Of a stretch of DNA of 64,000 nt, positions 9,628 through 62,809 are shown piece by piece. Position 1 is the first letter of the stretch. Each line of letters opens with the position of its first letter. The notes beneath the pieces are model-generated. The model was not told the DNA's origin, ran no database searches, and saw only the letters and a list, made by a program, of their open reading frames with translations. This DNA comes from Squalus acanthias (lineage: Eukaryota): positions 153,886,001 through 153,950,000 of the forward strand of contig CM059431.1 in assembly GCA_030390025.1 (NCBI GenBank), in the 5' to 3' direction. The position numbers and the translations under genes were made by a program.

Positions 9628-10052
9628 AGTACCAATATTCCCAATTTCAACCTGCATGTTTAGAACTTTATCTCGATTTCTCGGCAAATTACCCCCTATT
9701 CTACTTTAGGGTTAACATTACTGCATATGCCGATAATCCTGATAATTTCGGATCACTTTGCTCATCACGTTCAAAAAATCATAGCAAGATACAGCGCATA
9801 AGGAGGCCATTCGTCCCGTCTGGCTGTATGAAAGAGTTATCCAATTTGTACCATTCCAGCTGTCATGCCAGTTTGTTAATTTTCTACCTGATGTAATGGC
9901 CAACAAACATCTGTAAAGTATATTGGGAAACAAAAAACCGTGAACTTCTCCCGATAATTTAAGCTACTCGTACGTAAACTTTGCTGGGAACCGCGTGGAA
10001 ATGTGTCTAATCGCAATACAACTGGGTGATTTAATGAAGATTTTGTTTTCAG

Positions 10053-10224
10053 CAAATTAGACAACTTGCGGGAAAGAATCGCAGAGTTGATGCTGCTAAA
10101 CTCCTTCTCGATATGGTGTTAGAAAAAGGAGAGAGGGCAAAAAGTAAAATGGGTGACGAGTTTCAGAAACGGCAAAACATCAATCCAAAGCTGAAAGCAC
10201 TATTGGAAGCAATACAGAGATCAG
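10053..10224 (+). CDS. Isolated coding exon, CARD/death-fold-like, of an elasmobranch NLR-type gene
   Basis: Acceptor ttttgttttcag| and donor |gtacag; 172 nt, open in phase 0 to phase 1: QIRQLAGKNRRVDAAKLLLDMVLEKGERAKSKMGDEFQKRQNINPKLKALLEAIQRS(G). LLDMVLEKGERA resembles the CARD helix motif LLDxLxxKGxxA and, from memory, the N-terminal exon of shark NACHT-LRR proteins. Confidence 0.75.
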
Positions 10225-11044
10225 GTACAGCAAAATAGTTCACTGACATTAGATATGACTTTAAAAGCAATCCTTAGATATCATATACATAGCAGACTGT
10301 AAAAGCTAAATGCGAGGGGCAGATTTTCATAGGGGTAATCTCGTTAATTCGATATTTTATGATCACGACAGTTATTCATTTTGTTCTTGAAATGTGCAAT
10401 TACTTTTCATAATATCTTCAAAAGAAGGTTATTTCAGATGGAATGAAGGCACCAATTAGATATTTGATCCAACACTAGTTTAAGAGAAAATATCGTTTTT
10501 TTTAATAAATTGCAGAGCTCATGTTTTTGACCCTAATCAGTGCACTAGTATCAAATTTGCACTCGGCACATATCAGATCACACTATTTGTTAATAATATA
10601 CAGAAAACATTTTATATTATGTTTTAAAGTTTCCAAATATAACAAATCTCCAGTGTAGGAGAATTGCTTTTATACAAAAGCGTCTGTATCAATGACGAAG
10701 ATACTCAAATGACGTAAAGGCTGTGCTTAATCTACATTGCTGTAAGGTCGTTTTCAATTGCAGAGTGCAAAGCCTAGGTTAGAGTAATACATCCTGTTAC
10801 CATTGCCACTCTGCTCCCTAACAGTTGATCAGTTTGAGGCATTCCTCTTTACATACAGTGCTATATTTCTTAAAGTTATTTGTTACTTTTCAAAAGAATT
10901 GACTGCATCTTCCGCAAACCAAAGCCAAAAAATTGCGAATCTCAATTTAGAAATTGACGAGATCCCACAAAACCCGTTTTCACGATGGACTGGAATTGCA
11001 CATCCATTCTGTAGTCCATTGTTTGCAATGCGTTCTAAATACAG

Positions 11045-12004: not shown

Positions 12005-13320
12005 AAAGTGTCGAATTTCGCTGCAGATACTGACCGAGATTTTGCGGGGGGTTAGCGGGCGGAATCGTGGCAAGTCGGGTAGGAAAATGTTTTTTTGAAA
12101 ACGGATCGCGAATCCGCTGTCAACCTGCCACAACACGCCTTTACCACATTCGGGTCTGTCATATGAGCAGTCCCGAGACTCGGGGGACACAATTGAAATA
12201 ATTAACATCTAGTTAACAGATGGTTAACAGGATTTCCTTTTACTTACTTTTTGACCTTAACTGCATGACGACGGGAAACACGCTATTCGGGGACCACGTC
12301 TGTCAACCTGAGGCGTGAGTTCAGTCGCCATTGCTCCAGCTGATTATTTGCTAGCTTCAAATGTACAGTAAAGGATCCTACCTGTCAGATCATCACTTTC
12401 CTCAGGCAGAAGCTGTTTCTCAGTCTATTTCCAGCGCAGATTCAGCATGTTGCAGTCTTTTCAGTCTCCATCCAATCTCATCTCATTTGGCACAACTCTG
12501 TCATCATTGACAGAATGCTTCTGTCATTTCTACTTCACCTGCCAGCTATACCTTCAACATGGTTGCCCTTTATACTGTCTCAACTTGGTCCTCAGAAACC
12601 TACGACGATCAGTCCCAACACCAGGAGCACCAGGCACACCAGCAGCACCAACTCCAACACCAAAACTATCCTTTAGCACCTGATGCTGCACAGGACCGAG
12701 TGCATCAGAACTCGAGTACAGTGCTGCCTTTGGAGGCCAGGGATGGCCTCAGCATGGCCACAATTACTTCACTTGAGCCTGTGCACCCTCGCTGCCACTT
12801 GATACACTAGGTTGGCACCAACCCCACACTTACACAATAAATCATCCCTACAATGTCAAAGCCATTATTTCCACACTCACTAGCATTGCGGGGGTACCGT
12901 AATGTCTCACCATTCACTGCAACTGAATAAGCCACTTCCAGTTTTGCACAAATAAAGATCTCAATATTTGACTGCACATTAACAGAAACTTTACATGATC
13001 AATGGATAAAATACCCAAGTGGCTACCCTTGTCTGCTGTTATTTGGTATGATTTCATTTGGGAGAGCATGAATGTGAGGGGTGACTAGTAAATGGGGATG
13101 TGATAACGTAAATTGAGAGAGAGAGGGTTAGGTGGATGTGCAAGTTATGTTGGTTCGAGTAACATTGTGCAGGAGTAGGGTTGGGCAGACAAAATTATGG
13201 GAATGTGATCAGAGGCACAGCAGGGTGAAGGCGAGTGTGGCTTTGTTCTAACGTTTGTTTATCTAATGGGGTCGTTGAACCGTTTTTGGCACTGCACCCA
13301 TGACCTCCTGACGATATCTA
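12005..13320 (-). mobile_element. Degraded PIF/Harbinger element with Myb/SANT-like gene remnant
   Basis: Minus strand 13320-13264 translates to ..IVRRSWVQCQKRFNDPIR, matching the RTxxQCxKRFxDL signature of Harbinger Myb/SANT-like proteins; GC-rich terminus-like sequence near 12010-12200. Extent is approximate. Confidence 0.55.
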
Positions 13321-13417
13321 GCCTATCCAACCCCATCATAATCATGTACACCCCTTCAAATCACCCCTCAACCTCCTTTGCTCTAATGAAAACAAATCCA
13401 GCTTCTCCAAAAAGTCA

Positions 13418-17410: not shown

Positions 17411-17681
17411 GTATTGAATTTATTGGTGACCATATTATATTTATGATAATTGAACGCATTGTCAGCAGTAGCTTGTACCAGAGCCCACAGCACATCATTG
17501 TGGGTACAAATCAACATTTTAATTCGGTACAATTGGTTCAGCGAATACCTGAGCACGGAAGGTTCCTGCGATCTTTCCTTTGTTAGAAGGGAAAAGCTAA
17601 ACTTTTCCGGAGAAACACATATCAAAATCATCTTGGTTAGACGACACTTGAAGTACGGCGCACATTTATGGTGCTCATATT

Positions 17682-18422
17682 GGCCCAGAAATTGATCTCG
17701 CTCTGTTCCCGCGGGGGTAAGGCTTTCCCGCGGTCTCTCACCTCGCTTGTGCTTTTTCAGATCCAGCTCGCACGAACTTAATGTTCTAGTGATCAGCTGG
17801 GCAGTGCTTGCGTATCCCAGCGGCGTAGTGAATTCGTGCGAGCTGTGAGATCACGTGACTCAGTTAGAGCCAATGGCAGCACAACATCTTCCATTCATAA
17901 GTTTCACTTGAGTGCAGTGAAATCTATGAATCTTACAACCCCCCAAAAAAACAGCTAAACCTCAATTAAATTAAAAAAAACCTTCACATTAATAAAATAA
18001 GTATAGTTAATTAAATTAACCATTTTAAATAAAAAATTAAATTTTTGAAAAAATTTAAAATCTTTTAAAAAGTTATAAAAAAAAACTTATCTGTCTTTAA
18101 ATTCTCTAAAAAAGATATACCTGTTAAAAAAAATTCAAAAAAATACTTAATTCACTACTTACCTTCTTAAAAGTGGGTCTTACTCCTCCTTTTTACATTT
18201 CTAAAATCTTCAGTACTTACCTGCGCGTCCAAAGCATGAAGTGCACAGCGTGCGCGCAGCCTGTAGCGCGCACGCGATGCACCGAGGAACCGCCCCCTTT
18301 TCAAAAGAGCAATTGCCGGTTTTCAGCGCATGCGCAGTGCATGCAGAAAACCGGCAATTGGAGTGGGAATACGCGAGAGTACGCAGTGCGTACTCTCGCG
18401 TCGGGGGATCAATTTCTGGGCC
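17682..18422. mobile_element. Non-autonomous PIF/Harbinger-type element (MITE), complete copy A
   Basis: Perfect 16-bp TIRs GGCCCAGAAATTGATC / GATCAATTTCTGGGCC; 3-bp TSD ATT at 17679-81 and 18423-25; AT-rich interior; two hairpins at 18310-18360 and 18371-18401. Confidence 0.9.
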
Positions 18423-18675
18423 ATTGTTTCCTGATAGATCGATTATCAATCTATCGATAATTTCACGAATTATTGACTGTAATCGATTGAGAGTTCTCGA
18501 TCTATTAAAGATTCCCAATCCTTTCGCTGATCCCAATCCAGTGAATGAGACAGCAATTTGTTGGTCCAGGCCTGGCGGGGGCCACAGTGGGGTCGCTCTG
18601 GCTGCCCGTACCAGGGAGCAGGGACCACCTGGTGTATGCTTGAGTCCATTCCCGACCGGGGGCATCGCAAGATAT

Positions 18676-20519: not shown

Positions 20520-21880
20520 TACCTGTCGAGACTCAGAGTACTCTCGGCTAATGGGCGAGGCAGATGCAAAGCTTGCCCTGTGTTTTGCGGAGGGCGAGAG
20601 TACCATGTGCTATGTAGAGTGTCAGATTACCTTGTGATGATATGTAGAGGTTAATAGTACCTTGGGTATAAAAAGGAAAATAGTACACTGGTATATTGGC
20701 CTGAAGAGTCTAGGAGTTCTCTGGTTTATTGGGCCTGTAGAGGTTCAGAGTGCCCTGGGCTATAAAGAAGGATAACGTACCCTGAGCTATTGAATCTGCA
20801 GAGTGTCAGATTTCCCCGGGGCTATTGGATCTGTGGAGGATGAGAGTGCCCTGGGTTATATAGACGTTCAGATTACTTGTGCTATTAGGCCTATATATTC
20901 TCAGACTACCTTTGGCTATGCAGTAGGTCAGAATTCCCTGGGCTTTTGCGCATGTACTGTGTCGTAGTTCCCTAGGAAATTGAGGCTGTAGTTCGTCAGC
21001 TTTTGGGGCAGTAGAGACTCAGAGTACCCTTGGATATTGAGTCTGTAAAGGATCAGAGCGCCAACGTGCAATGGGCAATGATAAGGTTCAGTGTACCCTC
21101 AGCTACTGGACTGATAGTGAACTGGAAAGCATTGCTTGAAAGGCTGGTGGATGAAGACTGAACAGTAACATTCAAAAGAAAATTGGAAAAATACATGAAG
21201 GAAAGCAATTTCAGGGCTATGATGAAAGAAAAGGTGAGTACGACTAATTGGATAGTTCTACAGAAGAGCTGGCACAGGCACGATGGGCGGAATTGCCTCC
21301 TCTGTATTGGCCCTGTAGTATTTCAGAGTACCCTAGGCTATGAAGTGTTCAAAAGCATTCTGGGGTATATAGAGGACTCCCTTGGCTACTGGGCTGTATA
21401 GACGGCCAGTCTAGCCTGAGCAAATCAGTGGTTCAGTCGTCCTGGGCTATTGCTCCTGCAGAGGAACAGCCTGCCCTGGGCAATACAGAAGGTCAGAGTA
21501 TCTTCTGCTATTGGGCCTGTAAAGGGTCAGAATGCTATGTGCTGTTGGGCCTGCAGAGGTTCCGTTTAACTTCTGCTATTGGGCCTGTAGAGTGTCAGAG
21601 ATTCCTGTGCAATTGGGACTGTAGTGGCTCAGAGCACCCTGGATATTGGGCCAATAGAATGTCAGCGTTCCCTGGGCTATTGGGTCTTGGGTGGGTCAGA
21701 GTACCTTGGGCTAGGCATCGACTCAGCATATCCATGGCTACTGGGAATGCTTAGGGTTAGAGTACCCCGGGCTATGTCGAGGATAAGATTCCCTGGCCAA
21801 TGAGCATGTGGATGCTCAGTCAACCCTGAGGCTATTGGATATGCAAGGGTCAGAGTATCCTGGGCTATTGGCTTCCTGGG
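20520..21880 (+). repeat. Degenerate ~34-bp minisatellite array 1
   Basis: Recurrent GTCAGAGTACCCTGGGCTATTGGGCCTGTAGAGG-like units plus shorter ~22-bp variants; interrupted by a CR1 3' fragment near 21120-21305. Confidence 0.9.
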
Positions 21881-21903
21881 ATGTTACATCTCTAACTTTT
21901 ACC

Positions 21904-21940
21904 AGTTCTGATGAAAGGTCTTCGAGCTGAAACGTTAACT
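21904..21940 (+). ncRNA. Minimal type I hammerhead-ribozyme-like motif in a Penelope pseudo-LTR fragment (about 21881-22000)
   Basis: AGTT CTGATGA A AGGTC TTC GAGCT GAAA CGTT AACT: stem I AGTT/AACT, core CUGAUGA and GAAA, stem II with one G-G mismatch, palindromic ACGT stem III. Confidence 0.65.
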
Positions 21941-22384
21941 TTGTCACTCTCTCCACATTTGCTGCCTGACCTGCTGAGTATTTCCAGCATTTTTTGATTT
22001 TCTTCACCATATCATTGTTCAGTTCCTTGCAGAGTAATTCCATGGCATCAGTGAACTCTACCGCTCTACAAACTAAATTTTCAATAGTTTTATCAATATG
22101 TATCAAAAGATTATTACAAATCAAATTATTCATGTAAAAATAATGGCAAAATGCATGCCTTTCAAATTGGGACGGAATTATATCCGCCCATCTCTGGAAT
22201 AACTCCTCTTCACTTGAGGACATCAACTTCGTGGAAACATTCTTGTCTCTGAGTCACACCGTGCACAGTTCCATCACCAATCTCAGCGAGCTGAGACCTG
22301 AACTCCGGCTCTGAATTCTGTGATAACATCCAACGGCAACAGTAGAAGCATTACCGGGACTTGCTGGCATTAAAAAATGGGAGC

Positions 22385-22776
22385 AGTGTTTATGATCTAA
22401 TGTCGTTGAATATAGTGTTCGTTCCGGAGGGTTGTGAAGTGCCTAATCAAAAGATGATGTACCATTCCGCGACCTTCCGATGAGCATCATTGGCCGAGCA
22501 CAACGAGGTCACCGTGGGATGGAGAATTATAATGGCAAGCCAAAAGGAAGCTCAGGGTCACGCTTGCGGAGTGAACAGAGGTGTTCAGCAAAGCGATGAT
22601 TGATTCTGCACTGGTCTCCCCACTGCAGTGGAGACCACGTCGTCATCAGCGAATACAGTATAATAAATTGAAAGAATTACTAGTATATCGCTGTCTAACC
22701 TGAATGGAGTACTTCGGTCCCTGGACAGTGGTAAGGGAGGAATGGAAAGGACAGGTGTTGCATCTCCTGCGCTCGC
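22385..22776 (-). mobile_element. Penelope-like element, GIY-YIG endonuclease fragment (degraded)
   Basis: Minus-strand translation RRCNTCPFHSSLTTVQGPKYSIQVRQRYTSNSFNLLYCIR**RRGLHCSGET..RFAEHL..HRKVAEWYIIF*LGTSQPSGTNTIFNDIRS*. Confidence 0.88.
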
Positions 22777-22903
22777 TTGTGGTTTCTTTTCTCTCTGGAG
22801 CACATCCCGAAAATGTTCAAAAATTGGCCTGATTAAATAGAGTATCACCTACAAAATATACACAACACAATTGCATCAAACAATCTTCATGTTAAGTAAT
22901 CAT

Positions 22904-22991
22904 TTATTCTGTAATTACAGTCAAATGACCCGATACACTGACCGACTTCAGATTTGTCAGTCCTTCTGCAGAGAATTAATTGTGAGTCAAA
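22904..22991 (-). pseudogene. NLR terminal LRR-cap exon
   Basis: tttttcag|T LTHN*FSAEGLTNLKSVSVSGHLTVITE*; premature TAA at 22978-22976, natural stop at 22906-22904. Confidence 0.8.
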
Positions 22992-23235
22992 CTGAAAAAT
23001 ATTAAAATAACGAAAAAAAATTATCGATACGGAGTCTACTCTTCCGTTCACTGTGAGTAGCAATATTATTAAATTCATTCAAAATAAATGTGTTTACACA
23101 TGCGAAGGAGATTAATTTTCCACAAAATAATGATATAATTTTCCCCATATCTGGTCTATTCAAATTAAAATAACGAAAATACATTTTACACGTGAAAGAA
23201 CATTTAAATATTAAATAGGTAACTCGGAAACTCAC

Positions 23236-23427
23236 CTGATTTCCTTGAGATTAGCTCTACTCTGGATGAGATGGCGCAATGCCGGAACAGAATTATCAGT
23301 CAGTCTGTTGGCCCGTTCGCCATCCTGATTTTCGTTCCTCAGATCGAGCTCGATGAGTGAACCATTTTCACGGAGGGCAGAAACCAGATTTTCCACACAA
23401 TGATCTGTGAGATCGTTAGATTTTCAC
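23236..23427 (-). pseudogene. NLR LRR exon (192 nt)
   Basis: ctgcag|G TGA(stop) KSNDLTDHCVENLVSALRENGSLIELDLRNENQDGERANRLTDNSVPALRHLIQSRANLKEI AG|gtgagt. Confidence 0.9.
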
Positions 23428-23691
23428 CTGCAGTGACCGAAAAATAAACAGAAATTATACAAGACGCTCACACATTAAAAACATCACCACTTGCTAATAA
23501 TTACTGTGAAATTTCAGAAACACGGGAGAAACCTTTTGATATGTGCCTTTTTTTCCTGTTTCTAAATTATTTTCATCTTAATGTTAATTGAAAAGTGAGC
23601 TGCCTGATCATCATTAACACACTAATTAGAATTATTATAGATGAATAACTTTCCAGTTGTGCTGTTCTATATATTAACCGTAATTACTCAC

Positions 23692-23778
23692 TCCAATCTC
23701 GGAATGTTACCATCACTTTTATTCAGAACGGCAGAGAGCCGTTTCACTCCCGAATCTCCCAGTTTATTCTCATTGAGT
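23692..23778 (-). pseudogene. NLR LRR exon (87 nt)
   Basis: LNENKLGDSGVKRLSAVLNKSDGNIPRLE; donor gtgagt; acceptor reads tttcg instead of tttcag. Confidence 0.9.
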
Positions 23779-24624
23779 CGAAACACAAATAACCAAAATC
23801 AATAATTGATAGGTAGCAATGCAACAGATAGGAAATATTCGTAATTAAATAATGTATTTAACGTGGACACTTTGGATATCCAAGACGCGAATATAAGACC
23901 CGTAATTCAAATTCAATTTAGTTATAGCGCATGCGGTCAAATCAGTGACAATCACAAAGTGTACTTGTTTTATCGGGAAGTTACTCTAATGCCCGTGGTC
24001 ATGATTTAAACATACATTATAAAATTATTACATTTAATGTAGTCACTGTGTGGTTAGCAGATTAATTGCTGTAAATCGTAGCCTGCAATGAAGAGGAATC
24101 CACGACATATGTCTCTCACAGGACGGTTCTCTTCATTAATTGGAGAATTTAGGGTAAAATTAGAGACCGTCTCTTTGATCTTGTCTCTATTTTAGGAAAG
24201 TTATCTATCTGATGCATTGAGGTTCACAAATGCCCTTAAATCATCCCCAAGTCTATTGGAGAATCCACTGATGGGGATTGTAACAGATCGCTCGAATGTG
24301 CATCAGAGCGGGTGGAGTGATATTCCCTCTCACTTTCCTTCCCTCCGGACCTCTGATGATGCCGTGGCGCAGCAGTGCGGCTGGAGAGAGTACTCAGAAT
24401 TTGAGCAATCGCAGACGCGAACCCACATCTAACTGTTTCATTTGGCAGCATTGACCTCAAAAACAACATTATTGATTAGGCAAATCTGATCTGATCGAGG
24501 AATTGGGAATTTTAGAAAAGTACAGTTAAAACTCGCTTATAAATTATTCAAACTGCAAAACATAACAATGTTATTTGGTTACAGTTTAAAATAAAACAGA
24601 TATTTTGTCACTGACAATGTGGAA

Positions 24625-24915
24625 TTGGCACAAGGTTCAGTAAGCAGAGGACACCGATTTAACGTAATTGGCTAAAAAGCCGGAGGTGACATGAGGGAAA
24701 CCATTTATGGAGCTAGTTGTTAGGATCTGGAATGCCCTGCCTGAAAGGCTGGTGGAATCAGATACAGTAGTAGCTTTCCAAAGGGAATTGTATAAATACT
24801 TGTAAGGGATAAATATGCAGGGCTATGGGGAAAGAGCAGGGGGGTGGGACTAATTGGATAGCTCTTTCAAAAACCGGCATAATCACGATGGGCTGTACGA
24901 TTCTGTGAATCTATG
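24625..24915 (+). mobile_element. CR1 3' fragment within an NLR intron
   Basis: CR1 C-terminal/3' UTR sequence (GATCTGGAATGCCCTGCCTGAAAGG..GGGCTATGGGGAAAGAGCAGGGG). Confidence 0.8.
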
Positions 24916-25276
24916 AAATGGTAACCTTCTACGAAGAGCGATCTAATATATAATGATTAAAGGGTCGGGGAATATATCTTACTGATTAATCCGGATTCTC
25001 CGGTGGTGCGAAGAGTGCGCTGGATTCCAATGTAATGTTGCCAACATCCAATCTGATCTAATTAAATGAGCAGCGCAGCAATTTCAGGCATTACCCGAAC
25101 AGACACTCCGGTGCCGTCTCTTACGGTTCCATTTAACCCAGCAGATAGTGGAATGAGAGAATGTGTTCATTAATTGATCGAATTGAGTTAATGTTGTTGC
25201 TTTTAACTAATATTATCCCACGTGCCAGTAAAACAGTAGTTGTTGATAATGCTATTTAACGTATTCAGTGAATTAA

Positions 25277-26991
25277 CTGAGTATTTTACATTTGTGTTGC
25301 ACGAGCTCCAACTGATGGATACCTTTATCTTGTATCTCACAGGTGCTGAGATTCAACTCTTCAATCACTTCAAGGGCCATTAGTGCGTTTGTCAGAACCG
25401 CACAGTCAGAAGGTATAAGAGGACACAGTGTGAATTCCATTGTCTTTATCGGTGTTAATGCTGCCTTCATCCGTTTTATTTCTCCAAATTCAAGAAAATA
25501 ATGCAATATCAGTAAGAATGTCCTTTGGCTTTGCCCATCTTCCAGGTTCTGAACACGTCTTTTGACTTTTTCCGTGAGCAAATGCGACACACACGGGAAT
25601 GCTTGAGAAGGAATTTCCCCCAATTTTCTATCAAGCTGATCAGTTGAATTCCGTGAGGAGACACCGACAAGAAAACGAGAAAAATATATTGAATCTCTCG
25701 TCAATGCACGTGTAGCCTTCATTGAGCAATCGTGTCACACCATTTCCTGGTGTGCTAAGACTTTCCATAAGTGCAGCGACAAAGTCATGCACGACGGAAT
25801 GAGTGAGTGTCCAGACAAAACTACACAGATGTTCATCTCGAATCTCCATCATAAACGTAGAGATAAAGTTGGAAAGTTCGAGTCTGTGGCGATTGATTTG
25901 CTTTTCATTAAACACAATGTTTTTTTTTGCAACTCCCTTGTACGCTAACTCGCCGAGTTTCAGCAACATGTCTTGAGCGGTTTCTGCGTCACAGCCGCAT
26001 CTCTCGAAAAGGCTTGTGACGTACGCGCAGAAAACCTGTGTGCTGGTTGTGACGGACAATGGTCTGTCCCCCGCTCCTTGTACCCGGTGTGACTCTAAAA
26101 ATGAAGCGAGGAGCGAGCAGTACAGAGGATTATAGCACATGGTGTACATTGTCTCATTCTGCTCAATGTACTCGATTATATCTTTCGCAAACTGTTCATC
26201 TACAAAATAACGGCCGACGTATTGTTTTATTTTCTCAGAGGTGAAACCCAGAATTTCCACCGTTGGAAATAAGTGTGCCTTTCCCAGTGACTTCAGTTTC
26301 CATGGCCGGCTTGTGATCAGTACTGAACAGCCTTTCAGTAAGTGTCCCTGTATGAAGCAGCGCACGATGTCTGACACTTCACTGCAGCAGTCGGGATCGA
26401 AACATTGATATTGGGGGTCGTTGTTTCTCTGAATTTCGGTGAAATCGATAGTAAAATTTGTCTAAATAATCAAATATAAAGAATATATTTCCGGGTCCTT
26501 TCCACAGAAGTTCCAACTCAGTTTGGAAGTCGGAGTAGGAATCCAGGATCAGGCTAGTTAGACATGTTTTTCCTTTTATTAAATTCAATTTTCTAACCTT
26601 AAAAGGAAAGACAACTTTAATCTGTTTGTATATTTTCCCTGCAGCCCAATGATGGATTATCTTCTGTATCATGGTGCTTTTCCCAATTCCCGTGGCCCCA
26701 ATTACCACGGTTGTCCCAGAACTGCCTGTTTTCGTGAAACTCAGCAATTGATTCAGGTGAATTTCTTCTCGTTCATTCTGGACGGTTTTGATCTGTAATT
26801 CTTTATGCTCTCTACCTCGGGCCTTCAGTTCATTTTCTACGAATCTCCGCTCACGCAGGGAAGCAACACGCGTTACTTTAGTTTATTTTTCATCCAGAAA
26901 AAATCTTCGAAATCTTTTTTTCCTACAGTGGTTTTGAATGTCATCTTCACATTTTCTTTGTGGAGAGTGTCTTTGTGCTGCAGTTCTATCT
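25277..26991 (-). pseudogene. NLR large exon: NACHT NTPase and helical domains
   Basis: Walker A GATGIGKS, Walker B-like FFIFDYLDKF, sensor VLITSRP, EILGF, CYNPLYC, THSVVHDFVAA; frameshifts near 26900, 26452 and 25682; TAA at 26885-26883; exon ends CTCAG|ttaatt without the expected GT. Confidence 0.93.
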
Positions 26992-27707: not shown

Positions 27708-29222
27708 GACCTCGTCCTCGCCAACCTACCTGTCGCAGATGCATCTGTCCGTAGCAGTGACGAAGATCCCGTCTTCACACTGAGAACACCCACCGTGCTA
27801 AATTCAGAATAGATCTAGCAGTTCAAAACTAGGCACCCATGAGGCAGCAGCCGAATTGTAACCTGGGGACGCTGCAACACAGGACTACATGAATGCATGC
27901 TTAAAAGCGGAAGCAGCATGCTGTAGACAGGGATAAGAGACCCCGCATTCAACGGACTTGATCGAAACTCTGCAGCCCTGCCACATCAAGTCATCAATCA
28001 ATTAACAGGAAGTGGACTGAATAGCCCCAACCTAGATGGTGGAGCCCATCACGTGAGTGCGAAAGCGAAGGCTGAAGCATTTGCAACCATCTTCAGCCAG
28101 AAGTGCTGATTGGATGATACATATCGATCGACTCCTGAGATCTCCACCATCGATTCACTACACGCTGAGCGCTCTGGATACAGCAAAGATTATGGGACCC
28201 GACAACACCCCGGCTATCAAGCTGAAGACATGTGCTCTAGCCAAGCTGTTCCAATACAGCTACAATAACTGGCATCTATCCGACGATGTGGCAATTAGCC
28301 CAGGTCTGTACTGTCCAAAAAAACCAGGATAATTACCGCCCCATCAGTCTACTCTCAATCATCAGCAAAGTGATGGAAGGTGTCATCGGCAATGCTATCA
28401 AGCAGCACTTACACGCCAATAACCTGCTCACTGATGCCCAGTTTCGGTTCTGCCAAGACCCACTCGGCTCCCGACCTCGTTACAGCCTTGGTCCAAACAT
28501 GGACAAAGGTGCTGAATTCTAGAGGTGAATTGAGAGTGACTGCCCTGGGCAGCATTTGACCGAGTAGTAAAACTGAAGTCAATGGGGAGGGGGCCGGTAA
28601 TCTCCACTGGATGGAGTGATACCTAACAAAAAGGAAGATGGTTGTGGTGATTGAAGCTCAATCATCACAGCCCCAGGACATCGCGGCAAATGTTCCATAT
28701 TAACGCAGTCTCCTGTGCCGAATCTGCTTCATCAATGAACTTCCCTCCAACATAAAGTCAGAAATGGGGATATTTGCTGGTGACTACACAGTGTTCAGTG
28801 CCATTCAAAATTACTCAGATATTGAAGCCGTCCATGCCCGCATGCAACAGGACCTGGACGACGTTCAGGCTTGGGCTGATAAGTGGCAGGTAACATTCAC
28901 GCCACAGAAGTGCCAGGCAATGACTATCTCCAACAAGCGAGAGTCTAACCACCACCCCTTGGCATTCAACGGCATTACAATCCTCAACCTTCAACATCCT
29001 GGGGGTCACCTTTGACCAGAAACTTAACTGGACCAGCCACATAAATACTGTGGCAACAAGAGCTTGTCAGGGCTAGCTATTATGCGGCAACTGTCTCACC
29101 TCCTGATTTCCCCAAGCGTTTCTACCATCTACAAGGCACAAGTAAGGAGTATGATGGAATACTCTCCACTTGCCTGGATGAGTGCAGCTCCAACAACACT
29201 GAAGAAGCTCGCAACCATCTGT
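27708..29222 (+). mobile_element. L2/CR1-superclade LINE, internally deleted
   Basis: ORFs 28286-28522 (WQLAQVCTVQKNQDNYRPISLLSIISKVMEG) and 28764-29015 (FAGD..QQDLDDVQAWADKWQVTF); same family as 13418-17200 but opposite strand. Confidence 0.88.
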
Positions 29223-29228
29223 TGAACA

Positions 29229-29530
29229 ATTTTTTAAATTATACTTAATTAACCACTTACCTTGTTGAAAACGGCTCCTGCGCCTCCTTTTTATAAGCGT
29301 AGGTTCTTCACTACTTAACCTCCCGTAGAAACCTGAAAAAAAATCTAAGTTCGCTGCATGCGTGCAGCCTCTACCGCACACGCGGTTCACCTAGGAACCG
29401 CCCCCTTCACCAGACCGGAAGTTCCGGTTTCCGGCGCATGCGCAGTGCATGCAGGAAACCGGCACTTCGGGACGCATGACGGGTGAGTATTCACGATGTA
29501 CTCACCCGAGAAGGGCCGAATTTTTGGCCC
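29229..29530. mobile_element. Harbinger-type MITE right end, copy B
   Basis: Shares GGAACCGCCCCCTT, the core GCGCATGCGCAGTGCATGC, two hairpins and a GAATTTTTGGCCC terminus with copy A. Confidence 0.8.
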
Positions 29531-50597: not shown

Positions 50598-50972
50598 TCC
50601 CGACACTGGCCTCTGTAAAAACCCACGAAAGTGAGTTTAACCACTCACTGTGCTGCTGCTCTCTCCGCTCCCGACACTGGCCTCTGCAAAAAAGTCCACG
50701 GAAGTCAGTTTAACTACTCAGTGTGCTGCTACTCTCTCCGCTCCCGTATCTGGCCTGTGTAAAAAAGCCGCGAAAGTGAGTTTAAATACTCACTGTCCTT
50801 CTGCTCTCTCCGCTCCCGACACTGGCCCCTGTAAAAAAAAACGCGAATGTGAGTTTAACTACTCACTGTGCTGCTGCTCTCTGCGCTCCCGACACTGGCC
50901 TCTGGAAAAATGCCCACGGAAGTGAGTTTAACTACTCACTGTTCTGCTGCTCTCTCCGCTCCCGACTCTGGC
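50598..50972. repeat. ~72-bp tandem array (5 units plus a partial) with an internal hairpin
   Basis: TCCCGACACTGGC recurs near 50598, 50669, 50742, 50814, 50887, 50960; unit carries AGTGAGT-TTAACT-ACTCACT. Confidence 0.93.
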
Positions 50973-51424: not shown

Positions 51425-54400
51425 CGGCACTGGGCTATTCTGTTTTTAGTGGGTCAGAGTACCCTGGGATATTCGGATTGCAAAGAGTCGGAGTAACGTG
51501 GGCAAAACAGAGGGCCGGAGTACACTGGGCTAGTGGGACTGCAGAGGGTGAGAGTACCCTGGGCAAATAGGCCTACAGTTGGTCTGAGTCACCTCTCTAT
51601 TGGGCCTGTAGAAGGCCAGACTACCTGCCCTAATCAATCTGTAGCGGGTAATAGTACCCTGGGCAATTGCATCTGTAGACGGTCAGAGTTCCTGGGCTAT
51701 TGAATTTGTAGAGGGCTAGGGTAAACTGGGCCGTGTAGAGTGTCGGAGAACATTGGGCTATTGAGTCTCTAAATGGTTAGAATATGTTAGTTCAGAATGT
51801 CCTGGGATATTTGCCTTGCAGACATTCAAAGTACCGGCGGCTTTTGGGAAAACAATTGTTCAGAGTACTTTGCTCTATTGGGCCTGGAGAGGGTCAGAAT
51901 ACTCTGGATATTGGGTCTACAGCGGCTCAGGGCACCTTGGGAATACCGGCCTTTAGAGGGTCAGAGTACCCTGGGATACTGGGCCTTTAAACATTCAGAC
52001 CTCCCTGGGAACAATGGGCCTTCAGAGGTTCAGAGTACCCTTGACTATACAGCGTGTCAGAGTACCCAGGGTTATAAAAAAATCAGATAACACGGAGATA
52101 TTGGTAGCTTAAATCGTCTGTGACCCTTGGACATATGGGAATTTGGAGGAGATGCGTTCCCACAGCAATTGAACATGTAAAAAGAACATTAGAACATAAG
52201 AAATAGTAGTAGGAGTAGGCCAGCTGGCCCCTCGAGCATGCTCCCCCATTCAATAAGATCATGGCTAATCTGATCTCGGCCTCAACTCCACTTCCCTGCC
52301 CGCTCCCCATAACCGTTGACTCCCTTATCGTTCAAAATCTGTCTGTCTCCAGCTAAAATATATACAATGACCAGCCTCAGAGATGAGTATTGAACTATTG
52401 GGCTTGAAAGGGTCAGATTTCCTTGACATATAGGGCCTGTAGAATGACAGAGTACGCTGAGCTGTGCATAAGTTAAGAGCACCCTAGGTTATTGGCCAGA
52501 AGAGTGTCAGTGCAACCTGGGCTAGGTAGAGGGTTAGAGTCCCCCTGTGCTATTGAATCTTTGGAGGGTTTGTGTACAATGGGCTATCGGGCATTTAGTG
52601 GGTCAGAGTTCTTGGGCTATTGTGTCTGTAGAGAGCTAGGGTAAGTTGGTAGCGTAGATTGTCGGACTACCCTAGATGATGGAGTCTGTTTATGGTCCGA
52701 ATAAGTGGGCCATTGAGTCTTTAGATGGTCGAGCATCCTGCGCATTTCCATTTGTAGCCGGTCAAAGTACACGGGGAGTTAGGGCCTACAAAGCTTCAGA
52801 ATGCTTTGCGCTATTGGGTCTATCGAGCGACAGATATTGTGGACACTTGGGTCTATGGAGGCTCAAAGTACCCCGGAATAATGGACCTGCAGAGTGTCAG
52901 TGTACATTGGGATATTGAGCCAGTTGTATGTTAGGGTACCCTCGGCTACGCAGAGGGTTAGAGTAACCTGGGCTATACTGAAGATAAGATTACGATGGGA
53001 TATCGGGCGTTTAGTTCAGAGTATCGGGAAAAATAGGCTTTGAGCCTGTGGAATATCAGCGTACCTGAGATGAATTCAGAGATTCAATCAGTGTAATCTC
53101 TAAAAGACCAGAGTACACTGACCTATAAAACGGGTCAGATAAAACATGACTATTTAACGTGCAGATGGCTAAGAGTACCTGCACCACTGAGTCTGGAGAG
53201 GCTCAGAACAACAGCGATGCTGAATTCTATAGAGGGTCAGACGTCCTGCGCTTTTGATTCTGTAGAGGGTCAAAGTACCCTGGACTATTGACGTTTTAAA
53301 CTCTCAGAGTTGACTGGCTATTGGGACTGAAAAGCTTCAGAGCACGCTGGGCTATTGGGTCTGTATAGGGTCAATGTACCCTGGCCTAGACAGAGGGTCA
53401 TAGTACCTGGGCAATATGCCATGCAAAGTGACATATCAGCTTGGCTATTGAGCCTGTAGAGTGTCAGTGTACTCTGAGCTATTGGTCCTGCAGGTATTCA
53501 GCGTACGCTGGGCTATTGGGTCTGCAGAGTTTCAGAATAGCCTGGACGAAACTGTGGATGAGATATCCGTCAGCTAGTGAGCCTGCAGAAAGTTAGCGTA
53601 CCTGAGCTGTTGGCCTTGTAAAGAGTCAGATTACACTCGGCTACGGAAAGGGTCAAAGTAACCTGGACTATTGAATCGACGGTGGGTCACAGCATTATGC
53701 AGTATTCAGCATTTAGAGGATCAGAGTACCCTGGGACATTTGGTCTGCGAAGGGTTTGTGTGCCCTGGGCTATTGGCCTTTTGATGGTAAGATTTTCCTC
53801 TGCTATTTTATATATAACGAGTCCGCGTCCCCTGGCAATAATACAGCCAGAGTACCTGGGAAATTGGGTATTTAGAGGATCAAAGTACGCTTGGTTATTG
53901 GACCTTTAGAGGGTCAGAATTCCATGGGCTATTGTGTTATTTGAGGTCCAAACTACCCTGGGCTATTTGGCCTTCAGAGGATCAAAGTACCCCGGGCTGT
54001 TGGGCCTATAGAGGGGCAGAGTACCCTGGGATATTTAGTCTGTGGAGGGTCAGTGTGCCCTGGGCTATTGGCATTTAGATGGTCAGTGCTTCCTGGGATA
54101 TTTTAACTATAACGATTCAGCGTCCCGTGACAATAATAGGGTAAGAGTACCTGGGCTATTGAGAATTTAGAGGATCCAAGTACGCTTTGTTATTGGCCAT
54201 TTTGAAGGTCAAATTTCCCTGGGCTATTCTGTTATTAGAGGCCCAAATATGTCTGGGTTATTGGGCTTTTATAGGATCAAAGTACCGGGGCGGTTGGCCC
54301 TATAGAGGGGCAGAGACCCCTGGGAAAATCAGAGGATTAGGGAACCCTGGGCTACTGATCTTTTAGTGTCAAAGTACCCTGGGCTATTGGGCCTTTAGAG

Positions 54401-54608
54401 GATCAGAGCACCCGGGGCTGCAGGGCCTATAGAGGGGCAGAGTACCCTGTGGAAATCAGAGGATCAGAGAACCCTGGGCTACTGGGCTTTTAGTGTCAAA
54501 TACTCTGGGCTATTGAGACTGTAGAAGGTCAGAGTGCACTGAGCTATTGAGCCTGTGATGTTTCAGATTACCCTGGGATATTAGGTCTTCAGAGGCTCAG
54601 CGAACCCT
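51425..54608 (+). repeat. Degenerate ~34-bp minisatellite array 2 with higher-order structure
   Basis: Same unit and orientation as array 1; CR1 3' fragment inserted at about 52183-52380. Confidence 0.92.
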
Positions 54609-58810: not shown

Positions 58811-58814
58811 CTGA

Positions 58815-59767
58815 GTATCACATATAAATCGTACGAAACAGGCGACAGCCGGACCTTCCAGGGGAGCGGAAGCACAACTTAATGATGACACTCCCCTCGA
58901 GGAGGCCGTGCTGGCCGTGATCGGGAGGGAAGTGGAAGACAGTGTCCAAATGCAGAGCCGGGGACATCTCGCCTAGAGGTATGTGACCACTGCAACTTCC
59001 TTGCAGATGAACAACTATTCCTGATCGCGAATCTTCCTAAGCGATCCTCACTCCCAAGCTTCAAATGATCTCATCACACGCATCCTCCAATAGTAGCCAC
59101 ACGCGCTCCACCCTAGCCCTTCCAACTTTATCAGTGCAAGCGCCGACGAGCCAGTCCCACCTCGCCCCGTGGAGCAGGTTGGAGAAGAGCAGCAACCTCC
59201 TCCTCCTCCAGAGGAGAACAGCACGGAGGAGGATAGCGGGGAAGAATGCACTGCGTCAATGGTTACCACTGTCAGAGACACCAGTTCAAATAACGTCACC
59301 ATACACAACATAGAGGCTAACATAGTAAAACTTTAAATACATTTTAAAAAAATCACATTTTTAAAATGACTTTAAAGTAAATTAAATTAACTATTTTAAA
59401 CAAAAATTTACATTTTTCAAAAAAAATTATTAAAGTTTTTTACGGGGCTTAAAATAAACTTACCTTTTTTAAAGTACTGTTAAATGATAAATCAGTGGAA
59501 ATTTAAAAAAAAACTTTTTCCAACTTTTTACCAGGCGCAAGAATTGTTATGGTTTTCTGCGGGCGTAGGGTCTCCAAAAAGCGGAACTCTCCGTCCGCAG
59601 AGGCCCTTCTCCCGGGCAGCAGGAGGATCTGTCAAGAGCTTTCTTGACAGATCGGAAATGCCGGTTTCCAGCGCATGCGCAGTGCATGCCTGAAACCGGC
59701 ATTTCCGATGTCATTACGGGTGCGTACACAGCGCGTAGCCACCCGTAGGTATCGGAATATCCGGCCC
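58815..59767 (+). mobile_element. Harbinger-derived element: putative Myb/SANT-like gene remnant plus structured right end (copy C)
   Basis: Plus strand reads ..GAEAQLNDDTPLEEAVLAVIGREV.. followed by an acidic/Pro-rich tract; AT-rich block; hairpins at 59626-59747; terminus GAATATCCGGCCC|ATT. Confidence 0.65.
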
Positions 59768-60376: not shown

Positions 60377-62809
60377 GGGCAGGGCTCCAGCGGGGAAATG
60401 CCTCCGATCCGCAATTAAAATCCACGCCTACCTTCTTCCTCGGGATTTACGGAGACTCGCGCTCCTGGGCCTCTGCACATAGGAATTTATAATGGTGAAC
60501 AAAGAAATGGCAGCTCAATTAAGTACATACTTTGTTTCTGTCTTCAAAAAGGAGGACACAAATAACCTCCCAGAGATGTCGGGGAATATAGGGTCTAATG
60601 AGATGGAGGAACTGAAAGAAATCAGTATTTGTAGGGAAATAGTGTTAGGGAAATTGACGGGTTTAAAGGCCGATAAATCCCCAGGGCCTGATAATGTACA
60701 TCCTAGGGTACTTAAAGAAGTGGCCCTCGAAACAGTAGATGCATTGCTGGTCATCTTCCAAAATTCTACAGACTCTGGAACAGTACGCATGGATTGGAGG
60801 GTAGCTAATGTTACCCCACTATTTAAAAAAGGTGGTAGAGAGAAAACGGGTAATTATATCCGGTAAGCCTGACATCGGTAGTGGGGAAAATGCTCGAGTC
60901 CATTATAAAAGATGTAACAGCAGAGCACTTGGAAAACAGTGACAGGATCGGACAAAGTCAACATGGATTTACAAAAGGTAAATCGTGCTTGACTAATCTA
61001 CTGAATTTTTTTGAGGATGTAACTGGTAAAATAGATAAGGGAGAACCAGTGGATGTGGTGTATTTGGACTTTCAGAAGGCTTTAGATAAGGTCCCGCATA
61101 AGAGATTGGCGTGTAAAGTTAAGGCACATGGGATTGGGGCCAAGGTACTGACTTTGGATAGCGAACTGCTTGGCAGAAATAAAGCAAAGAGTTGGATAAA
61201 TGGGTCTTTTTCCGAGTGGCAGGCAGTGACTAGTGGGGTACCGCAGGGTTCGGTCCTGGGACCCCAGCTATTCACAATATATATTAATGATCTCGACGAG
61301 GGAATTGGATGTAATATCTCCAAGTTTGCAGACGACACAAAGCTGGGTGGGAGTGTGTGCCGTGAGGAGGTTCCTAGAAACTCCAGTATGATTTGGACAG
61401 GTTGGGTGATTGGGAAGAAGCATGGCCGATGCAATATAATGTGAATAAATGCGAGGTTAATCACTTTGATGTCAAAAGCAGGAATGCAGATTATTATCTG
61501 AATGGCAATAGATTGGGAGATGGAGAAGTGCAACGAGACCTGGGTGTCCTTGTGCACCAGTCGCTGAAGGTAAGCATGCAGGTGCAGCAGGCGTTTAAGA
61601 AGGCAAATGGTATGTTGGCCTTCTTAGCGAAAGGGTACTAGTACAGGAACAAGGATGTCTTGCTGCTGTTGTACAGGGCCTTGGTGAGTCCACATCTTGA
61701 GTATTGTGTACAGTTTTGATCGCCTTATCTGAGGAAGGATGTTCTTGCCATGGAGGGACTGCAGCGAAGATTCACCAGGCTGATACCTGGGATGGCAGGA
61801 ATGATGCATGAGGAGAGATTGGGTCGATTGGGCTTATACTCGCTGGAGTTTAGAAGAATGAGAGGGGATCTTCTTGAAACTTATAAAATTCTAACAGGAC
61901 TAGACAGACTAGATGCAGGAAGGATGTTCCCGATGGCCGGGATGTCCAGAACCAGGGGTCACAGTCTAAGTATAAGGGAAAAGCCATTTAGGAGTGAGAT
62001 GAGGAGGAATTTATTCACCCAGAGAGTGGTGAACCTGTGGAATTCTCTACACAGAAGGCAGTAGAGGCCAATTCATTAAATATATTTAAGAAGGAGTTGG
62101 ATATATTTCTTAAAGCTAAAGTGATCAAGCGATATGGGAAGAAGGCAGTGACAGGGTACTGAATTTGGATGATCAGCCATGATCTCATTGAATGGCGGAG
62201 CAGGCTCGAGGGACTGAATGGCCTGCTCCTTCTCCTATCTTCTATATTTCTATGACATGCGCAGAATTCCACGTATCGCGTGGGCCGGCAGAACCAACGA
62301 AAGAAGTGAATCCCAATATATGCGTCTGGGGATTCTGCACGACCGGAATCCCCATAAGCATGAATGGGGATGACATAAAAAACATACTGACATACCAAAT
62401 AATTAAAAAATGTTACGTATTTAAAATTAATTTAAATACAATTTAATTAAACATTTTAAACAAATGTTTACTATTTTGAAAAATAATTTTAAACGTTTTA
62501 AATGTGCTAAAAATAACCTAAATTTATTTTACTGGTTTTTTAAAGTTTAAATAATTGAATTTAAAAAAATATTTATTTAAACACTTATGCTGTCAACAGA
62601 ACGCCTTACGCCAGCTTTTACCAGCCAGACGATTTTCACGGGCATTCGCTGGGCAGTAGTTGAGCGAATAACCCAACTCTCTACCCGCGAATGCCCTTTT
62701 CCCGGGAATTATTCGTGGCAGATCGTAAGTTCCGAGTTTTCACGCATGCGCTTCCAGTGCCTACGGGTGTGTACGCGGTCGCTCCCTTAGGCACTGGAAA
62801 ATACGGGCC
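60377..62809. mobile_element. Harbinger-type MITE copy D, split by a CR1 insertion
   Basis: AAT flanks at 60374-76 and 62810-12; right end GAAAATACGGGCC; left TIR match is weak; removing the CR1 restores TCTGCACATGCGCAGA. Confidence 0.7.
60481..62254 (+). mobile_element. CR1, 5'-truncated, with 4-bp TSD
   Basis: ORFs 60492-60866, 60881-61444, 61393-61641, 61750-62064; TSD ACAT at 60477-80 and 62255-58. Confidence 0.94.

Follow-up and report, generated by a model that had tools for sequence, protein, structure and literature searches.

On balance, the hairpins found at one PHIS/Harbinger-type transposon end in the 64-kb window (the whole stretch of DNA analysed) are best understood as a dyad-symmetric control region of fixed spacing, which would be read as double-stranded DNA and would comprise an inward promoter together with protein sites. 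The geometry, symmetry and motif content of this region are directly visible in its copies. Support comes from a core placed 96 bp from the end, a gap-free module, arms conserved over the linkers, cognate TIR words, the lack of strand bias, splice donors directed only inward, CpG richness and the occurrence of the same 19-mer elsewhere without stems. The counterweight lies in the number of copies (four), in ETS words confined to copy B and a GC box confined to copies A and B, and in copy D, which is donorless and has two inward AATAAA.

Element copies and family placement

The DNA of the window is of vertebrate type and rich in LINEs, with reverse-transcriptase frames that are CR1-like. Evidence on the module comes entirely from four copies (A-D) inside the window, none of which is established as a subfamily consensus. 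Copy A is complete, and copies B, C and D are right ends truncated by LINE sequence.

17682..18422: copy A, complete non-autonomous, non-coding TIR element of 741 bp, bounded by perfect 16-bp TIRs and flanked by ATT at either end
17679..17681, plus strand: left target-site duplication of copy A, ATT
17682..17697, plus strand: left TIR of copy A, 16 bp, starting with GG
17709..17845: left subterminal inverted pairs of copy A (7 bp at 17709-17733, 13 bp at 17764-17845, a nested pair of 5 bp)
17893..17931: internal 16-bp inverted pair of copy A, 14 Watson-Crick
18407..18422, minus strand: right TIR of copy A, whose inner word recurs in the hairpin-1 arms
18423..18425, plus strand: right target-site duplication of copy A, ATT
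29219..29530: copy B, right end only, adjoining a LINE fragment; flank AGT
58813..59767: copy C, right part, adjoining CR1; flank ATT
58815..59318, plus strand: two putative coding exons of copy C (the first to 58978, the second from 59135), separated by a GT-AG intron; one stop codon
62255..62809: copy D, right part, adjoining CR1; flank AAT

A profile of the four right ends recovered no fifth copy within the window, and a scan of the window for such termini returned just five ends, those of copies A-D. The right ends (18422, 29530, 59767 and 62809) place all four copies in the same orientation, for which the chance is 1 in 8, and three of them lost their left part to LINE sequence. Parts of copy A were also found in 20 of 24 listed sequencing-run rows (shares of 0.15-0.58 in five coded organisms, most of the RNA labels being guesses); these rows were excluded from the evidence for any reading.

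The termini had been described in the earlier note as Harbinger-type, which holds for PHIS in the wide sense, given a 16-bp TIR starting with GG and a 3-bp duplication, but not for the strict TWA target. A short TIR with a G start is present in copy A, and copies B-D have related ends; the 3-bp target-site duplication is seen as ATT on both sides of copy A, the one complete copy. The right flanks of A-D (ATT, AGT, ATT, AAT) are A-N-T in 4/4 cases (P ~4e-5), as in the duplication of Pangu/Harbinger2. A TWA duplication characterizes PIF/Harbinger, CWG NuwaI and A-N-T Pangu (PMC4482050), the latter being the Harbinger2 of Repbase (PMC12730594). Since their flanks are A-N-T and not TWA, copies A-D belong to PHIS by their ends but do not fit the target of strict PIF/Harbinger; nor do the same flanks fit that of NuwaI/NuwaII (CWG or C|TNA|G).

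Coding traces are scarce. No DDE family was detected in the 86 of 166 non-LINE window frames that were scanned, no transposase or confirmed Myb gene in the scanned frames of copies A-D, and no Pfam match at cut-off in those of copy A. The first putative exon of copy C resembles what we take to be the tail of a Harbinger Myb-like protein; the 53-aa piece had no Pfam, homolog, representative-library or Atlas match, and because the putative intron is 156 nt long its phase match counts for only 1 in 3. A common binding word at both ends of copy A was rejected, as the top 5-, 6- and 7-mers shared by them lie within the shuffle range; no 9-bp Myb site was found, since no word shared by the ends exceeds shuffles.

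Other features of the window were recorded. The segment 12033-13317 is presumably another Harbinger-like element, with a TIR-like end after ACT at ~12033; within it, an ATG frame at 12559 (plus strand) and a Myb-helix-like piece at 13262-13327 (minus strand) are what we assume to be convergent genes, and this element had no Pfam match and is without the 19-nt core. A further TIR-like end with a GTA flank lies on the minus strand at 60380-60430. Pieces with NACHT and NOD2-WH (21816-26882, minus strand), together with a weak CARD match below cut-off (10038-10235, plus strand), are predicted to represent an NLR-like gene cluster. A 34-bp tandem repeat occurs in dispersed blocks, and there is one 73-bp array (20640-21740, 51430-54608, 50598-50972).

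Conservation and paired changes in the terminal module

The right ends contain an invariant core and several hairpins, of which hairpin 0 had been missed by the earlier note.

18248..18275: hairpin 0 of copy A, 10/10 pairs
18310..18360: hairpin 1 of copy A, 15-bp dyad arms, centre 87 bp from the end
18326..18344: invariant core of copy A, an NRF1-type palindrome (candidate) and a second GCATGC 11 bp downstream
18371..18401: hairpin 2 of copy A, a 31-bp dyad, centre 36 bp from the end
29418-29468, 29434, 29480-29508 and 29255: hairpin 1, core, hairpin 2 and donor of copy B
29414-29428: inverted ETS-word pair of copy B
59651-59709, 59671, 59716-59746 and 59458: hairpin 1, core, hairpin 2 and donor of copy C
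59556-59601 and 59626-59653: extra hairpins of copy C
62640-62696 and 62742-62751: 10-bp pair and half core of copy D
62752-62763: perfect 12-bp arm of copy D, mirror of the TIR-proximal 62788-62799

The identity of the 19-nt core at 18326, 29434 and 59671 was confirmed: these are the sole three matches at up to 3 mismatches, with 0 in 100 shuffles. Its conservation exceeds the background, three-way identity elsewhere being 0.48 and a run of 19/19 having a probability of ~1e-4 after window counting. The core is not a loop, as a 6-bp GCATGC/GCATGC inverted pair lies inside it and is unchanged in A, B and C. These three copies can be aligned without gaps over their last 127-130 bp, at 67-69% pairwise identity. 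In all of them the core begins exactly 96 bp from the end, and shifting the alignment by 1-3 bp lowers the identity to 16-31%. Three-way identity amounts to 19/19 in the core, 11/15 in each of the hairpin-1 arms, 17/31 in hairpin 2 and 8/16 in the TIR; the linkers are identical at merely 1/10 and 0/5 positions. Hairpin 2 spans 31 bp throughout, although its inner part pairs down to a 1-nt loop in A and is broken in B and C. The claim that structure rather than sequence is maintained is therefore not supported, because the arms are also conserved in sequence (11/15 versus 1/10 and 0/5 in the linkers), the spacing is exact and 22/33 pairs are invariant. Such joint conservation of sequence, spacing and symmetry would be expected of protein sites on duplex DNA.

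The stems pair as had been claimed: 15/15 in A, 14/15 in B (one T.C) and 18/18 in C for hairpin 1, and 15/15 with a 1-nt loop in A and 10/10 in B for hairpin 2. DNA folding z-scores of the modules were -8.8 (A), -6.7 (B), -8.0 (C) and -2.2 (D). Among 18 hairpins of the four copies, picked by hand for pairing, 186/202 pairs are Watson-Crick, 5 G.T, 3 A.C and 8 other. That the stems covary holds for part of them only: two-sided changes occur at 5/33 pairs (2/500 shuffles), three in hairpin 1 and two in hairpin 2, whereas 22/33 pairs do not vary at all. The covariation score was reached in 0/500 shuffles, in a test on n=3 sequences (the A/B/C alignment) with a structure derived from the same sequences. 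Ten of the 26 arm pairs vary, five of them compensated and five broken in at least one copy; that 5/10 variable pairs stay paired throughout has P ~3e-4 to 3e-3 under independent drift, for arms that were chosen for pairing. The symmetry of the arms is kept beyond chance.

The second hairpin had been reported to covary in all four copies. Two-sided changes do distinguish A from B and C, and since the latter share their arm sequence the comparison is one of A versus B+C; in copy C two of its 10 pairs are mismatched. The 12-bp hairpin of D is not homologous to it, but consists of an outer arm extending into the TIR, and the true inner second hairpin of D keeps just 5/8 Watson-Crick pairs. Copy D is also without the second core half and the right arm of hairpin 1, and is 29 bp shorter. 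Hairpin 0 of copy B (29356-29383) has 6/10 pairs, and 3/4 of its mismatches are CpG transitions. Yet the CpGs of the core and of hairpin 1 are intact in the same copy, a contrast for which methylation protection or a subfamily difference are possible explanations.

The inner TIR sequence of a copy is similar to the outer end of its own hairpin-1 arms. When TIR words of length 7, 9 and 11 were compared with arms, the true assignment came out best among 24 each time; the best possible p is 1/24 (0.042), and the margin over the second assignment is 2. The left arm of hairpin 1 and the TIR word form a direct repeat 100 bp apart. Copy C has three occurrences of one 7-mer, alternating in orientation, and as RNA the two pairings open to this word are 1.9 kcal/mol apart. 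All three words together could not be used by one fixed fold, whereas a repeated protein site or templated copying can account for them.

Promoter-like words and the readings of the module

The invariant core contains a word that we take to be a candidate NRF1-type site, as the earlier note had labelled it; the word is present in A-C and has one mismatch in D. By the usual consensus words, ETS words occur in B only and a GC-box word in A and B. Further promoter-like words of copy A are as follows.

18290..18295, minus strand: GC-box word, found in A and B at matching positions but not in C or D
18215..18221, minus strand: candidate inward 5' splice-donor consensus 1
18157..18163, minus strand: candidate inward 5' splice-donor consensus 2

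Exact donor words inward of the core number 4 on the minus strand versus 0.11 expected (0/2000 shuffles) and 0 on the plus strand, a count taken over homologous, non-independent copies for a motif that was noticed before testing. Copy D has no intact donor, and two AATAAA lie on its inward strand. With 17-22 CpG in their last 200 bp, the copies rank among the top 0.6% of 200-bp tiles. NRF1, ETS and SP act as bidirectional motifs in human promoters, where the U1/5' splice motif gives direction (10.1101/2023.06.27.546584); the promoter grammar applied here is derived from human data.

The same 19-mer was found without flanking stems in an unrelated repeat, at 82 of 111 metagenome loci among the matches listed (63 distinct). 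The metagenome loci with the 19-mer number at least 111, and none of the matches listed has the stems, with at most 8/15 pairs. A stemless 19-mer in an unrelated repeat fits a host-factor site, although the match was selected by the query itself. No viral locus carried the 19-nt core, and core plus stems had 0 matches in prokaryote genomes. The metagenome repeat is abundant, AT-rich and non-coding, with the 19-mer ~120 bp from a sharp 3' end; this end looks like that of a rolling-circle (Helentron-type) element.

If the module is a control region on duplex DNA, the invariant core would be the site of a host factor, an NRF1 dimer site with a second half-site one helical turn away, and together with the optional ETS and GC-box words it would serve the autonomous parent as an inward promoter. 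The variable dyad arms and the inner-TIR word might be recognized by the Myb-like protein of the element or by its transposase, the arm and TIR words drifting subfamily by subfamily. Template switching could carry a change in one arm over to the mirror arm. Selection on those master elements that are active would keep the spacing and the symmetry, and copy A, like other short copies, would have inherited the module. For this end we infer binding, transcription and selection on the symmetry.

A tentative alternative, possible but clearly less probable, is that the symmetry arose as a by-product of mutation: selection would act on the core alone or on plain sequence, and GC-rich quasi-palindromes near the end would be perfected again and again by template switching, their pairing unselected. 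The earlier note had named this process as a way of keeping arms matched, and it is indeed a live contributor. In copy D a perfect 12-bp arm mirrors TIR-proximal DNA, the 2-nt bulge of C is gone and a 22-nt deletion adjoins, so that the arm looks like a template-switch event. Moreover, the palindrome of copy A is perfect to a 1-nt loop, copies C and D have private perfect hairpins, the other 5/10 variable arm pairs are uncompensated, and template switching is documented to make, maintain and repair perfect stems (PMC8794818). Taken alone, however, a by-product leaves unexplained the exact spacing across three subfamilies ~32% apart as well as the conservation of arms above linkers, and the match between the hairpin-1 left arm and the TIR word, being a direct repeat, would need two successive events.

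It is also conceivable, though we consider it unlikely, that each subfamily carries a private identity word three times (in both hairpin-1 arms and the inner TIR), co-evolving with its own Myb-like protein, and that the host NRF1 site stands between two of these words. End recognition and promoter control would then be one switch, either a protein clamp around an activator site or a word swapping its pairing partners, in a vertebrate A-N-T (Pangu-like) lineage.

Also unlikely is the proposal that the arms extrude, as a cruciform or as a single-stranded DNA hairpin, when the element is excised, when gaps are repaired or when the DNA is transcribed, and that a protein reads the shape. The stems are Watson-Crick and strand-neutral, with z-scores of -6.7 to -8.8, and the compensated half of the variable pairs, improbable under independent drift, would suit such a structure; in Muta1, restoring the terminal palindrome brought back binding, but not cleavage (PMC5499845). 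Against it, the centre of hairpin 1 is bulged and offset, which would be poor for extrusion, and extrusion would break up the duplex NRF1-type site. Copy D is without hairpin 1, hairpin 0 of B has decayed, and shape alone needs no fixed spacing.

The folding data concern both DNA and RNA. The modules fold at -75 to -107 kcal/mol per 200 nt, with near-equal energy on both strands in A, B and C, and D favours the minus strand by 9 kcal/mol; G.U accounts for 1/99 cells in the A/B/C pair alignment, and Rfam gave 0 matches at gathering thresholds across the window. No feature points to one transcribed strand. A structured RNA from the element (a small-RNA precursor, a switch or a 3' element), as suggested earlier, is very unlikely: the folds are very stable, a consensus fold has compensated pairs, the word of copy C has two alternative pairings within 1.9 kcal/mol and its plus-strand exons are directed at the module, but the structure is disfavoured because of the missing Rfam match, the absence of strand preference in A-C with a single G.U, the 1-nt-loop palindrome and words with two alternative partners, and further by an AATAAA ahead of the module on the plus strand of copy C and by an inward promoter, which would leave both hairpins untranscribed.

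Relation to known systems and significance

Among described families, Pangu/Harbinger2 shares with copies A-D the A-N-T 3-bp duplication, a TIR within 11-40 bp and the GG start (PMC4482050; PMC12730594). No vertebrate is among the 15 host genomes given for Pangu in the accessible text of PMC4482050, which also describes no subterminal dyad module of the kind present in copies A-C. The second ORF of Pangu is without known motif there, whereas copy C may carry a putative Myb-like tail (PMC4482050); such a tail would argue against Pangu.

Zebrafish Harbinger3_DR/Harbinger3N_DR is alike in its short TIR, 3-bp duplication and structured subterminal DNA expected to bind a Myb-like protein, but its target is CWG-centred and not A-N-T (PMC9710019, PMC2836001, PMC3016246). 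The Myb-like protein of Harbinger3_DR binds a subterminal 9-bp motif (PMC9710019; PMC2836001), and according to the accessible text of PMC9710019 DNA binding is demonstrated solely for this zebrafish protein. The repeated 9-bp motif had no counterpart in copy A, and a host-factor core is not reported for Harbinger3_DR in the accessible parts of these sources. Gene orientation is not given in those of PMC9392472 and PMC9179366.

The Harbinger-N12A_XT MITE of Xenopus tropicalis (PMC12676858) is likewise a short non-coding Harbinger with TIRs, palindromic internal repeats and host factor sites. It differs in being 342 bp long and centrally conserved, and compensated arms or fixed end spacing are not described in the accessible text (PMC12676858). 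Muta1 of Aedes aegypti (PMC5499845) has a palindromic terminal motif and subterminal repeats that are read by the transposase, and symmetry aids binding; however, it belongs to the MULE superfamily, with an 8-9-bp duplication and tandem direct repeats in a long TIR (PMC5499845). The CpG-island promoter grammar of NRF1/ETS/SP plus a U1 site (10.1101/2023.06.27.546584) resembles the module in the palindromic NRF1-type core, the ETS and GC-box words and the one-strand donors. It comes from mammalian genes, whereas the candidate promoter words of the module lie at the end of a transposon, enclosed by dyad arms.

That Harbinger MITEs can have palindromic repeats, subterminal or internal, is already known (PMC12676858). 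A description of the dyad end module was not found in a search of the open literature, and the element family may already be catalogued in Repbase or Dfam. An A-N-T lineage in a shark genome would extend the range given for Pangu in 2015 (PMC4482050), a comparison made outside Repbase and Dfam.

For the two-protein Harbinger system, end recognition, the separation of subfamilies and gene expression are thinly known. The module offers natural variants with fixed geometry, through which the question of end recognition becomes testable. It also calls for caution, as compensated stems in transposon ends can arise on the DNA itself and do not necessarily indicate an RNA structure. Provided that the core binds NRF1, promoter-like sites could be spread through the genome by dispersed copies.
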